Shown here: positions 3,827-6,826 of the stretch, in pieces | How the letters are laid out: each line of letters begins with the position of its first letter | Position numbering within the stretch: the first letter of the stretch is position 1 | DNA from: a virus | Strand: one strand, 5' to 3' | Virus genome (UHGV): UHGV-0346448 | Length of the DNA stretch: 25,332 nt | The notes under the pieces: generated by a model | Databases searched by the model: none | What the model saw: only the letters and a program-made list of their open reading frames with translations | What the model was told of the DNA's origin: nothing | Position numbers and translations under genes: made by a program

Positions 3827-4188
3827 TTAATGACCTGCTGCGCGGAGTTTTCCGTCAGGTTCACCGGCAAGAGTCAGTAATTGTCCCTGGTCTTCCTGCA
3901 GAATAGTCAGGCGACCACCGCGATTGACATACATCGGCGTTTCGGTGGTGTCTTCTTCGGAAATTTTCCCGCGGTTAGTCGGGCGAACATATGATAGTTT
4001 GTGTTTGATTTTCACACGGTTCTCATCAAATGGTTCGATTTCCAGGTTGAGTGAGACCTTACCTTTGGTTTTCGTGTTCATCACACCGGAAGCGACTTCA
4101 CTGAGAACTGCGCCGATTTTGGTTTCAAATACGCCGCCGTCCAGCTCCCCGATAAATGCCTGCACATCAGTACTGCGTTCGCTAGCCA
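3827..4188 (-). CDS. yfdP: YfdP-like protein (120 aa)
   Basis: Internal ATG at 4188-4186 with GAGGAGC RBS; product MASERSTDVQAFIGELDGG...; the 226-aa track ORF 3827..4507 has a low-complexity, unsupported N-terminal extension. Confidence 0.7.
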
Positions 4189-4238
4189 TTTTGCTGCTCC
4201 TCATCATATCGACCCTGCAAGGTCGGTTGGTTTCTCCA

Positions 4239-4375
4239 CAAAACAGAGAAGAACACCTGCGGTGGCAGCCGCTCGGATGGATTGGGTTATGAGCCCGTCG
4301 TCCGGTGATGCTCTTCTCTGTTTTGTAAAAAGAGCGGTACCAGCCGGAAGCAAGTGTACAAACTGGTACCGCCAG
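4239..4375 (-). promoter_or_regulatory. Structured leader upstream of yfdP: boxA-like CGCTCTTTTTA followed by two long perfect inverted repeats (candidate nut/put-like element)
   Basis: Minus-strand CGCTCTTTTTA (rc of 4326-4336); 14-bp inverted repeat 4239-4252 / 4312-4325 with about 60-nt spacer; 10-bp inverted repeat GCGGTACCAG 4334-4343 / 4363-4372. Confidence 0.3.
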
Positions 4376-4657
4376 GACTACACACAGCATAAAGTTGTGG
4401 TGCCGGGTGCCTCCCGGTGCCTGGCGAAGGTTGCACACCAGACGGGTGGGTATCCACAGAAGGTCGACTGTCAGCCTCAACCTTAACCCGCGTGCGCTGA
4501 GCCGCATTCACCACAACGCTAAGGATTCTCTTTGGTTGAAAATACTTAGCTGTTATGTGCCTGCTTTTAGCCACATCAGGCGAGGTGGACCTGGTTATTC
4601 CCCAACAACAAGGATTTGGTTATTATGTAACCCTCCCCAACAACGATAAGGATTTAT

Positions 4658-4747
4658 ATGGATCTATGTGTAGATAAGTATGAGGAGAGGCATGTGCCGT
4701 TAAGACAAAAGCCTCCAGTTCCTCCAAAACCACCCAAGGAAAACTGA
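4658..4747 (+). CDS. Proline-rich micro-ORF P0 (29 aa) immediately upstream of the membrane-protein gene
   Basis: AAGGA RBS 6 nt before ATG 4658; translation MDLCVDKYEERHVPLRQKPPVPPKPPKEN; stop 7 nt before the 4755 start; tail resembles two further micro-ORFs downstream. Confidence 0.3.
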   Translation: MDLCVDKYEERHVPLRQKPPVPPKPPKEN

Positions 4748-4754
4748 GACTAAT

Positions 4755-5249
4755 ATGACCAGAGACGATTATAAATTTTATATTCACTACTCTTATGTAT
4801 TGGAGAAGATGAATTACACGTTGTTAACTCGCATTGATAAATTAATAACGTTGATGTTAATCGTTCTCGGTTTTTCAGTTTTCGCCCCGTACAGTAATTT
4901 ATTTATTTTTGGTTTGTTTGTTGCCGTACTTTCGGTTCTTCAGTTGGTCTATCAGTTCGGCCAGGAGGCTGGGATGTCTAAAGAACAAGCGAGACATTAC
5001 AAAAGACTGCTGATTGAGTCTGATACTCTTTCTGAAGATCAGTTGCAAGCTAGGTATTTAAAAATCCAAGATACTGATAGTAATCCATGGAAATCACTTG
5101 AACGAGCGGCTTTCATTCGGGCCTGTATTTTTGCTGGTGTTCCAACTAAGTACGATTTAACAACCAAAGAAAAATTTATAGCTTGGTGTGCGGGAGATCT
5201 ACCTCTAGAGAATGAACTAACGGATATTAATGATGAGCAACAAGCATAA
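4755..5249 (+). CDS. AT-rich moron: small membrane protein with two N-terminal TM helices and a charged C-terminal domain (possible superinfection-exclusion or abortive-infection function)
   Basis: 164-aa ORF; hydrophobic stretches LITLMLIVLGFSVFAPY and LFIFGLFVAVLSVLQLVYQF; visibly AT-rich relative to neighbours; convergent to the P_L-like promoter; own terminator downstream. Confidence 0.7.
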   Translation: MTRDDYKFYIHYSYVLEKMNYTLLTRIDKLITLMLIVLGFSVFAPYSNLFIFGLFVAVLSVLQLVYQFGQEAGMSKEQARHYKRLLIESDTLSEDQLQARYLKIQDTDSNPWKSLERAAFIRACIFAGVPTKYDLTTKEKFIAWCAGDLPLENELTDINDEQQA

Positions 5250-5304
5250 TCCAGTTCACGGACATGTACCTCCGAAGCCGAAACCACCGAAACCGAAGAA
5301 ATGA
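5230..5304 (+). CDS. Proline-rich micro-ORF P1 (24 aa), overlapping the 3' end of the membrane-protein gene
   Basis: ATG 5230 in a different frame from the 164-aa gene; translation MMSNKHNPVHGHVPPKPKPPKPKK; C-terminal tail conserved with P2 at protein level despite divergent codons. Confidence 0.3.
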   Translation: MMSNKHNPVHGHVPPKPKPPKPKK

Positions 5305-5323
5305 GACATAATAGGATTGGATA

Positions 5324-5392
5324 ATGAGCCGACCAATAGAGCCTTTTCATATTCCTCCTCGTCCCAGGCCACCAGGTCCAGGCCCAAAGTGA
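5324..5392 (+). CDS. Proline-rich micro-ORF P2 (22 aa)
   Basis: AGGAT RBS 7 nt before ATG 5324; translation MSRPIEPFHIPPRPRPPGPGPK; followed by a terminator. Confidence 0.35.
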   Translation: MSRPIEPFHIPPRPRPPGPGPK

Positions 5393-5413
5393 GGGTTACT
5401 GATTTTTAAAGAG

Positions 5414-5440
5414 CAAAGCGTCCTGTAGGGCGCTTTTTTG
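5414..5440 (+). terminator. Rho-independent terminator closing the moron cassette
   Basis: Imperfect GC stem AAGCGTCC/GGGCGCTT followed by TTTTTT (5434-5439). Confidence 0.5.
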
Positions 5441-5524
5441 TTGCTAACGAATCATCCGGTCATTCATACGCCACCGGCGGCTACTTCGTGGGCGTCCTGC
5501 CTGTTCGTTACTGCAACATCTTTA

Positions 5525-5565: not shown

Positions 5566-5753
5566 TATGTGGTTTTGACGGATGTGAAATGAGGGCAAGG
5601 GTTATCAAAAAAGGAGGTTGTATGGACGATGCGCTTTTAATTACACAAGGGACACTTTCCTTCCGTGATTGGAAACTCTCAAATCACGGGAGGAAGATTG
5701 AAAAGGCGGGTAATAATGGTAACTAAATTTCTGAAGGAAGGTTTTTTGATGCA

Positions 5754-6440
5754 TTACCAAGTGCGCGATGACCAGAATACTCTACCTATAACGTGAATTC
5801 TGGAACGCCTATCTTCGAAGGTGAGAATTTCATCTGGATACTCATCTTTATTGAAACTTCTTAGAATCAGACCACCGTCAGGTAAATTGATCAATATTTT
5901 AACTCTAAGTAATACGCCATCACGTATGGCATAAAGATCCCCATCACGAATAGGAACCGTTTGGGAAACATCAACAGCAACAAAATCTCCATTGTTAAGT
6001 ACAGGTAGTAAACTATTGCCCCAAATTTTTACGATCTTTGCATTGGAGACACATACACCAGCTTTTCTTAAATCAATCCTTCTTAGCGGGAACCAGTCTA
6101 CAGTTGATTCAACTATTTCAGCCAAACATCCATTACCCGCTGATAACTCGACATCTAGGACTGGAATGTTTGCAAAAATGTCAGGATCTAATGCTGTACT
6201 TTCAGCCTCCTTTACAACAAGGTCTGGGAAAGACGCGTTATCCTCAATGCCCAATTGCAACCACTTTTGAGAAACCCCTAACACTTTAGCAATCTCTTTA
6301 ATTTTCCGAGGCTGTTGAGTTTCTCCATTCTCGATTTTCGCTACGGATTGTTGTGAAAGCCCAATTTTTTCAGCTAGTTGCGCCTGACTCATTCCTGCTT
6401 TTTCTCTTTCGCTTTTTAGTCTTTCTGCCAATGTTTTCAC
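5754..6440 (-). CDS. cI: CI-like prophage repressor (XRE-type HTH plus S24/LexA-like autopeptidase domain)
   Basis: N-terminal HTH (MSQAQLAEKIGLSQQSVAKIENGE); Ala-Gly cleavage-site context (ELSAGNG); C-terminal S24-like region; GTG start with GAGGGGG RBS; divergent from a Cro-like gene. Confidence 0.9.
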   Translation of the reverse strand: MKTLAERLKSEREKAGMSQAQLAEKIGLSQQSVAKIENGETQQPRKIKEIAKVLGVSQKWLQLGIEDNASFPDLVVKEAESTALDPDIFANIPVLDVELSAGNGCLAEIVESTVDWFPLRRIDLRKAGVCVSNAKIVKIWGNSLLPVLNNGDFVAVDVSQTVPIRDGDLYAIRDGVLLRVKILINLPDGGLILRSFNKDEYPDEILTFEDRRSRIHVIGRVFWSSRTW

Positions 6441-6577: not shown

Positions 6578-6826
6578 ATGACACCTGAGCAATTAGCCTT
6601 ATCAGAGGCAATCGCTCTGGCTGGTGGTCAATCAGAATTGGCTCGGAAGCTCACAGCCAGCAGTGGTCGTTTAGTAAAGCAACAACATGTCTGGAACTGG
6701 TTGAACAGAGAAAAGCGTCCCCCTGCAAAGCTCTCGATATTTATTGAAATGACCACTGGCGTATCAAAAGAAAAATTACGTCCAGATATTTTTCAAAAGA
6801 TTAAAGACTTATCAGATGGAAAGTAA
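6578..6826 (+). CDS. cro: Cro-like / YdaS-like HTH regulator (82 aa)
   Basis: AGGAGAAA RBS; first gene rightward of O_R; pattern GGQSELARKL...V.NW...EKLRPDI resembles my memory of YdaS/Cro-type small HTH proteins. Confidence 0.75.
   Translation: MTPEQLALSEAIALAGGQSELARKLTASSGRLVKQQHVWNWLNREKRPPAKLSIFIEMTTGVSKEKLRPDIFQKIKDLSDGK

Follow-up and report, generated by a model that had tools for sequence, protein, structure and literature searches.

Do the short proline-rich reading frames that bracket a small membrane-protein gene in a temperate phage encode genuine products and, if so, what could such peptides do beside a membrane protein? The question is raised by a cassette located at ~4553-5442 on the plus strand of the UHGV virus genome UHGV-0346448, of which a stretch of 25,332 nucleotides (nt), the window, was analysed and to which all positions refer. 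From left to right, this cassette comprises a leader, a micro-open reading frame (ORF) called P0, a gene for a two-transmembrane (2TM) protein of 164 amino acids (aa), two further micro-ORFs called P1 and P2, and a terminator. Judging from the comparison of homologous sequences, the three micro-ORFs are shown to be translated genes, paralogous members of an unannotated proline-rich small-protein family. This peptide family is also shown to be obligately linked to the 2TM family in temperate phages of Enterobacterales. The conserved pairing, found again in roughly 100 diverged temperate phages, represents a real, previously undescribed module that most likely serves phage exclusion or cell suicide.

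The four ORFs reported by the initial annotation are all present. P0, a peptide gene of type U (4658-4747, plus strand; 29 aa, MDLCVDKYEERHVPLRQKPPVPPKPPKEN), is preceded by the Shine-Dalgarno (SD) sequence AAGGA at 4648-4652, 5 nt from its ATG. Its stop codon stands 7 nt ahead of the ATG of the 2TM gene (4755-5249, plus strand; 164 aa), the SD of which (AAGGAA) lies within the last P0 codons. P1, of type D (5230-5304, plus strand; 24 aa, MMSNKHNPVHGHVPPKPKPPKPKK), is preceded by a weak GGA only and overlaps the stop of the 164-aa gene by 20 nt, so that it is probably translationally coupled. P2, of type D_A (5324-5392, plus strand; 22 aa, MSRPIEPFHIPPRPRPPGPGPK), has an AGGAT sequence 6 nt from its ATG, and the SD sequences claimed for P0 and P2 are thus both found. 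Proline accounts for 24% of P0 (charge +1), 29% of P1 (charge +6) and 41% of P2 (charge +3), the latter containing PRPRPP. The peptides display neither a signal sequence nor a hydrophobic segment. At this locus, RefSeq/PGAP calls the 164-aa gene alone, as a "hypothetical protein". None of ten peptides of the family, including P0, P1, and P2, was present in a collection of 15 billion proteins queried by exact sequence, and the peptide family has therefore never been called.

Members of this family are 21-39 aa long. In the clade of the window cassette, their core is H-Φ-P-P-[K/R]-P-[K/R]-P-P, and nearly all copies of the micro-ORFs start with an ATG preceded by an SD of the AAGGA/GAGG type. Type U occurs once, upstream of the 2TM gene, with the consensus ..DYEE[K/R]H[M/L/V]P..[K/R]P.PPKP followed by an acidic end, and in lambdoid-type loci its stop is placed 6-20 nt ahead of the 2TM start. 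Type D occurs one to three times downstream of the 2TM gene, with sub-types following the patterns MS[K/R]PIEPFH[V/I]PP.P.PP.PGK, MS.P.PIIPNH.PP.PRPP.P.., and ..EGP.PDS[H/Q][V/I]PP[K/R]P.P.PRP[R/K]. P1, or another D-type peptide in its place, is conserved in all lambdoid-type loci examined except the distant locus L071. The number of motif copies ranges from 2 to 5 per cassette, and their arrangement is flexible. Peptides are fused to each other in three loci (L049, L006, and L043), the motif is doubled inside one peptide in L050/56/63, and in Pectobacterium (P0015) an in-frame fusion adds it to the 2TM C-terminus. In AH04, the DNA past window position ~5268 is replaced, yet two motif-bearing peptides are still encoded. 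At locus L066, an intact 2TM gene followed by three downstream peptides is found in the absence of any upstream peptide, from which U and D peptides appear to be redundant. A stop-codon bias was also considered as a sign of release factor-specific arrest, upstream peptides ending mostly with TGA-G and downstream ones mostly with TAA; it was rejected because TGA-G belongs to the next SD.

Homologs sharing 55-92% identity with the 164-aa protein come from Enterobacter, Salmonella, Klebsiella, Citrobacter, Cronobacter, Leclercia, Pectobacterium, Sodalis, and Brenneria, and the 67 loci surrounding them were retrieved. Every one of these loci with sequence on both sides carries proline-rich micro-ORFs on the same strand. 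With one loose motif definition and the requirement that a U-type ORF end at most 45 nt from the 2TM start, such an ORF accompanies the 2TM gene in 99 of 109 distinct loci, versus 1 of 2469 background ORFs of 15-60 aa there (0.04%). At 40-46% identity of the 2TM protein (L166 and L168), both U and D peptides are kept. At 31-36% identity, reached in P2-like phages (Salmonella Fels-2 and Yersinia vB_YenM_42.18) and in Providencia phage PSTNGR2lys, the upstream micro-ORF is retained and ends 3-10 nt ahead of the 2TM start, the distant upstream peptides reading MSDSDNFHVLPRPAPAPKPEPGQDKK in Fels-2 and ...NDFHILHKPAPPEEKK... in the Yersinia phage. Since U peptides are kept at 31-46% identity of the 2TM protein, the core of the whole family can be written as [acidic or aromatic]-H-Φ-(P/L)-x-x-[K/R]-P-x-P. 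Conservation of the micro-ORFs in homologous loci, on which the initial annotation depended, is thus borne out down to 31-40% membrane-protein identity, and the frames are not destroyed by indels in relatives. The ancestral unit is shown to be one upstream peptide plus the 2TM gene, to which the lambdoid clade added one to three downstream copies. Beside a distant homolog in Elizabethkingia phage EKP1, a proline-rich upstream micro-ORF is present but lacks the H-Φ core and falls outside the motif definition. In the records of Fels-2 (L174) and of the Yersinia phage (L175), annotation is missing for both the 2TM gene and the micro-ORF that precedes it, and opposite-strand coding sequences overlapping the conserved 2TM gene (STM2733.1 at L174 2914-3318 and vBYenM4218_008 at L175 2297-2962) are probably mis-annotated.

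When 2.9 million viral contigs were scanned with the back-translated motif, occurrences outside GC-rich DNA were found only beside the 2TM gene, with one exception, and the remaining matches were discarded as chance frames in GC-rich DNA. The exception is a conserved virion-like protein of ~450 aa encoded in environmental viral contigs with a GC content of ~0.41 (L075, L107, L108, L133, and L149). Its extreme C-terminus, ...PDNGDQGGHLPPNPRPPGR (…GGHLPPNPRPPGR), contains an H-Φ-P-P-x-P-R-P-P motif that is probably coincidental and unrelated.

Selection on the peptide rather than on a simple DNA repeat had been proposed for these tails, and the comparative data agree with this proposal. For the 27-nt core, of which 56 distinct versions were compared, entropy amounts to 1.69 bits at third codon positions versus 0.74 at first and 0.58 at second positions, and arginine alternates between CGN and AGR codons. 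The pooled Nei-Gojobori ratios of nonsynonymous to synonymous differences (pN/pS) are 0.11 for D_A, 0.16 for D_B, 0.18 for D_C, and 0.27 for U, whereas the other two reading frames of the same DNA give ratios of 1.2-6.6. Synonymous sites are near saturation, with pS values of 0.68-0.86 over the peptide groups (0.86 for U; 0.68 for D_A, which is represented by 12 distinct DNA versions and has shifted-frame ratios >2). As the segments were chosen by peptide-level patterns, pN is biased downward, and the informative point is that such patterns can be found at all in loci ~70% diverged at synonymous sites. These data bear directly on the idea that the micro-ORFs are chance frames within a DNA or RNA element rich in proline codons and without any protein product. 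The absence of the ten peptides from the protein collection and the restriction of the PGAP call to the 164-aa gene would agree with it. Nevertheless, the wobble substitution pattern, the arginine codon switches, and the low pN/pS ratios effectively refute it, as do the SD and ATG at nearly every copy, the motif background of 0.04%, and the lack of significant RNA structure, so that its probability is negligible.

The partner of these peptides was initially called a membrane protein with two transmembrane (TM) segments, which is supported by the two hydrophobic helices found at residues ~26-47 and ~42-69 by both Kyte-Doolittle analysis and AlphaFold2 (AF2). Basic residues flank both helices, which are joined by a short neutral loop, and the predicted topology places both the N- and the C-terminus inside the cell. 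The AF2 model (pLDDT 75) displays a long helical hairpin followed by four short helices, the predicted cytoplasmic C-terminal domain of ~95 aa being helical. The cytoplasmic parts of the protein carry conserved motifs with invariant aromatic and acidic residues, namely YSY.LE, QDxDSxPW, and AGDLP. An exhaustive search with hidden Markov models delineated 302 family clusters, all of ~150-180 aa. In PHROGs, the protein belongs to phrog_6315, and phrog_23697 was also returned, both without assigned function. Among 55 diverse, distant members, 15 match the NCBIfam model SLATT_4 (best E 2.2e-5) and one matches SLATT_1; among close homologs, SLATT_4 and SLATT_5 are matched by one member each (E ~0.06), and Pfam SLATT profiles gave no match among the family members searched. 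Because of the SLATT_4 matches and of three UniRef homologs named SLATT, the 2TM protein is referred to as SLATT-like, and it may be a weak, transitive relative of the SLATT pore-forming effectors. Like the SLATT effectors of CBASS-like, retron, and DRT systems, it has a hairpin of two TM helices together with a partner domain in the cytoplasm, and it resides on mobile elements. Unlike them, it has no adjacent nucleotide-signalling enzyme (SMODS/SLOG) or reverse transcriptase, its only partners being peptides of 21-39 aa, and its family forms a tight, stand-alone set of 150-180 aa proteins from which the window member matches no SLATT model.

Several modes of action can be envisaged for the peptides. 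The micro-ORFs could be translational regulators in cis, either through EF-P-dependent diprolyl stalling or as new arrest peptides, with a pause or termination on P0 occluding the ribosome-binding site of the 2TM gene or coupling its translation, and so setting the level of a toxic protein. Proline-codon leaders and RAPP-type arrest peptides are precedents for such a control (PMC12992588). As in SecM, ApdA/ApdP (RAPP), and mgtP/mgtL, P0 is located just upstream of the gene, is proline-rich near its C-terminus, and contains the next SD. In all loci having a U peptide, its stop is found 3-20 nt ahead of the 2TM ATG and the 2TM SD is inside the U ORF. Most peptides of the lambdoid type include two diprolyl motifs, and the spacing of a conserved His ~7 residues before R-P-P would suit contacts with the exit tunnel. 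However, P1 and P2 precede a terminator and no gene, and in L066 the 2TM gene remains intact without any upstream peptide. Pro-Pro is missing from 13 distinct U peptides (including all 6 of the Fels-2 group and one lambdoid type), in which His-Φ...[K/R]-P-x-P is retained, so that diprolyl motifs are not conserved in the family. The cores defining arrest peptides, R-[A/G, partly S/P]-P-P or RAGP (PMC12992588), are absent from P0, P1, and P2. In addition, the RNA at both junctions folds no better than shuffled sequences (4600-4800, z -0.46; 5200-5445, z -0.62) and no attenuator structure is apparent, peptide fusions are tolerated, and, in contrast to arrest leaders, the cassette has paralogs downstream of the gene and its peptides carry no signal or TM segment. 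The stalling leaders initially put forward are thereby not supported, EF-P-dependent polyproline stalling being unlikely as a conserved function, and any regulation in cis is considered improbable.

The peptides could also be phage-made intracellular analogues of proline-rich antimicrobial peptides (PrAMPs) that target the ribosomal exit tunnel or DnaK and block translation of the host or of a rival phage, the 2TM protein being a partner, an anchor, or a second effector. Their size (~20 aa), proline content, and positive charge are shared with apidaecin, oncocin, and Bac7. P1 and P2 have the general composition of PrAMPs (at least 25% Pro, cationic, with P-R-P units), and they contain cores of the PRPRPP or PKPRPP type that are identical with those of oncocin and of active apidaecin variants. 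Activity of Api and Onc produced within E. coli cells is documented (PMC11347161, PMC12529121). Apidaecin requires its C-terminal PRPPHPRL with a free carboxylate at fixed spacing, residues P11, R12, R17, and L18 being essential (PMC11347161), and some D peptides (...PKPRPPAPKG and ...PRPRPPQPGK) match its spacing from PRPP to the C-terminus. Nevertheless, 2-7 variable residues follow PRPP in the family and none of the peptides ends in RL, P1 finishing with KPPKPKK and P2 with PRPPGPGPK; neither the HPRL of apidaecin nor the Y-L-P-R-P register of oncocin is found. The ancestral U peptides are neutral or acidic and devoid of PRP repeats, P0 and the U peptides of P2-like phages departing from the PrAMP composition, and ungapped identity with six PrAMPs is limited to 4-7 residues, mostly prolines. 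Constitutive production would poison the producer cell, and the termini, which must be free in PrAMPs, are buried by internal fusions. The cassette peptides further differ from PrAMPs by their phage or bacterial origin, the lack of a secretion signal, the invariant His-Φ before the core, and the constant linkage to a membrane protein. The initially noted resemblance to apidaecin and oncocin therefore holds for composition and is weakened by the variable tail after PRPP. Production of such inhibitors by the phage is judged doubtful, as is the broader proposal that temperate phages encode unmodified, ribosomally made PrAMP-like peptides with a SLATT-like partner as a two-pronged abortive-infection or exclusion device, to which we give little credence. 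An extracellular role would require export via the 2TM protein or by lysis, the peptides then serving as a microcin-like toxin or as a phage communication signal. The cassette adjoins the lysis-lysogeny switch, and SbmA admits proline-rich peptides into Enterobacteria. On the other hand, the cassette encodes neither a signal peptide or leader-cleavage motif nor an ABC exporter or a receptor, the same motif recurs across phages and offers no specificity, and the natural fusion P0015, in which the motif is attached to the 2TM C-terminus on the cytoplasmic side, argues for the cytoplasm, making export very unlikely.

The reading that we tentatively prefer is that the peptides are cytoplasmic polyproline-II ligands gating the membrane effector of an exclusion or abortive-infection module expressed in the lysogen. 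Having no signal sequence or hydrophobic segment, they would remain cytoplasmic, on the side of the membrane to which both 2TM termini are predicted to point. They would work in trans as multivalent ligands, docking on surfaces of conserved aromatic and acidic residues that the 2TM protein exposes to the cytoplasm. Much like a gatekeeper or an antitoxin, the docked peptides would restrain a membrane-permeabilising effector or adjust its activity. Expressed from the prophage, the module could ensure superinfection exclusion or abortive infection, and convergent transcription from P_L would silence it once its own prophage turns lytic. A ligand acting in trans would fit the multi-copy motif, its doubling inside one peptide, the fusions between peptides, the fusion to the 2TM C-terminus, the motif kept by the exchanged downstream peptides of AH04, the apparent redundancy of U and D in L066, the invariant residues of the cytoplasmic 2TM parts, and the shared compartment, and the SLATT_4 matches would suit an effector. 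Among the roles initially suggested, a toxin or exclusion module made of peptides and membrane protein fits the evidence best. Some observations weigh against this gating model. The 2TM protein of the window has no match above noise in Pfam, NCBIfam, or PADLOC, its SLATT membership being weak. In the AF2 model of the natural fusion P0015, the tail has a pLDDT of 46-53 and docking is indicated neither way. Proline-rich peptides resist most peptidases, which suits a labile antitoxin poorly. Finally, a consensus scan of the plus strand at 4300-4658 revealed no promoter for the cassette.

With lambda RexA/RexB and P22 SieB, the gated module would share a moron position adjacent to immunity, a small membrane protein that possibly depolarises the cell, and an expected expression in the lysogen. 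There is no sequence kinship, however, and the cassette is convergent to cI and P_L instead of being co-transcribed with cI, with micro-peptides in place of a RexA-like sensor. Type II-like toxin-antitoxin pairs offer another parallel, a small upstream gene being tightly coupled to a potentially toxic downstream gene, as do MgrB, AcrZ, and similar small proteins that modulate a membrane protein. Unlike the partners in these systems, the cassette peptides have no DNA-binding domain or TM helix, are soluble and of the polyproline-II type, and come in 2-5 paralogous copies.

In the literature library searched, no paper was found to describe a module associating a SLATT-like protein with proline-rich micro-peptides. 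Conserved, strongly selected small proteins overlooked by annotation pipelines are therewith added to prophages of E. coli, Salmonella (Fels-2), Klebsiella, Yersinia, and others. With the soluble polyproline-II micro-peptides, the stand-alone 2TM/SLATT-like family acquires a novel kind of obligate partner, which makes the pair a candidate for a new control logic of membrane-targeting immune or exclusion effectors. If the PrAMP-like reading were true, the peptides would be the first non-eukaryotic proline-rich translation inhibitors. At ~800 bp, the cassette offers a small system for questions on prophage-mediated defence and on ribosome or chaperone targeting. In practice, moron slots adjacent to repressors merit searches for micro-ORFs.

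The element hosting the cassette is an E. coli lambdoid prophage of the yfdP/Q/R (CPS-53/SfV-like) type, in which the cassette is a self-contained moron. The initial description of an AT-rich moron convergent to P_L is supported by base composition, by the flanks, and by a P_L-like promoter on the minus strand. The GC content of the cassette is 0.37-0.44 versus 0.51-0.55 immediately to its left. Megablast against phage genomes gave matches in the two flanks only: SfIV, SfII, SfV, Kati, and others have ~150 nt upstream and the terminator region in common, with unrelated cargo in between. The cassette thus has the attributes of a moron, i.e., a discrete insert with its own terminator, a differing base composition, and variable cargo in relatives. 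It is convergent to P_L because the P_L-like promoter (TTGACA-17-TAGATT, 5559->5531) sits on the minus strand. This promoter, outside the cassette, is a good sigma-70 match amid immunity-specific operator-like repeats that vary among phages with differing repressors, and it points left, antisense across the cassette. On every lambdoid-type backbone examined, the cassette is located between leftward early genes and a leftward repressor, facing them, these backbones differing in their early-left genes (yfdP/Q, RdgC, YdfE, or ParB-like) and in their repressors. In P2-like phages, it lies antisense within the early lytic operon. This genomic context supports a conflict module expressed in the lysogen. 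Of 5426 complete E. coli genomes, 51 carry the intact cassette with 95-99.6% identity, chromosomal in all. It is present, for instance, in E. coli UMNK88 (NC_017641, 298070-298870) and W224N, and also in Salmonella LT2, where Fels-2 (NC_010463) has the upstream peptide at 30253-30333 and the 2TM gene at 30343-30804.

To the left of the cassette are yfdR, yfdQ (DUF2303), and yfdP, all on the minus strand, yfdP (3827-4189) encoding 120 aa in RefSeq. The program-made ORF of 226 aa at 3827-4507 (minus strand) is over-long with respect to the RefSeq yfdP, and its upstream part overlaps an STnc100-like RNA. To the right are the gene for a repressor with helix-turn-helix and S24 domains (5754-6440, minus strand) and a cro-like gene (6578-6826, plus strand). 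In AH04, the neighbouring slot holds a gene for a 306-aa BRCT-domain protein (L003 4022-4942), which has a weak PADLOC match to the candidate defence family PDC-S48 (E 2.4e-7). In the window, a 34-aa ORF at 5622-5726 (plus strand; MDDALLITQGTLSFRDWKLSNHGRKIEKAGNNGN) resembles a remnant of this AH04 gene in which a deletion has brought the N-terminus next to the C-terminus. Just downstream of the P_L-like promoter, 60 nt at 5448-5507 are 88-98% identical in many otherwise unrelated temperate phages, including ST64B, SfV, Yersinia YeP1-3, and Eeyore. This stretch may be a nut- or put-like leader letting P_L transcripts pass the terminator, and the fold of the minus-strand RNA 5535-5395 is slightly more stable than those of shuffled sequences (z -1.64).

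The conserved leader of the moron slot (4553-4657, plus strand) consists of a hairpin, formed by GCCTG at 4559-4563 and CAGGC at 4577-4581 with one compensatory change seen, and of two repeats, CCCCAACAAC...AAGGA, at 4600-4615 and 4635-4652, the second of which supplies the P0 SD. This leader of ~100 nt is nearly invariant in nucleotides over 12 loci (including L001 2554-2660) with diverged coding regions, and SfIV has it ahead of unrelated cargo. It may be a portable element for the expression or regulation of morons. Its repeats resemble CsrA sites (ACAAGGAU). A minimal start-stop ORF (ATG TAA) is found at 4625-4630 (plus strand), 9 nt past the AAGGA of the first repeat; it is confined to leaders of the window type, TTAATCTGG being found at that place in other loci. 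At the opposite end, the intrinsic terminator (5415-5442, plus strand), made of a hairpin at 5415-5436 with a 9-bp stem and a T run, is kept in SfIV, SfV, and AH04 downstream of differing cargo. On the cassette strand, Rfam returned nothing but a noise-level Phe_leader match at the terminator. In the interval from yfdP to the cassette, an STnc100-like prophage small RNA (sRNA) is located at 4325-4539 (minus strand, as is the P_L transcript), matching Rfam RF02076 with 42.1 bits (gathering score 47) and an E-value of 3.7e-7; a 2026 preprint links STnc100 with the PasD prophage sRNAs.

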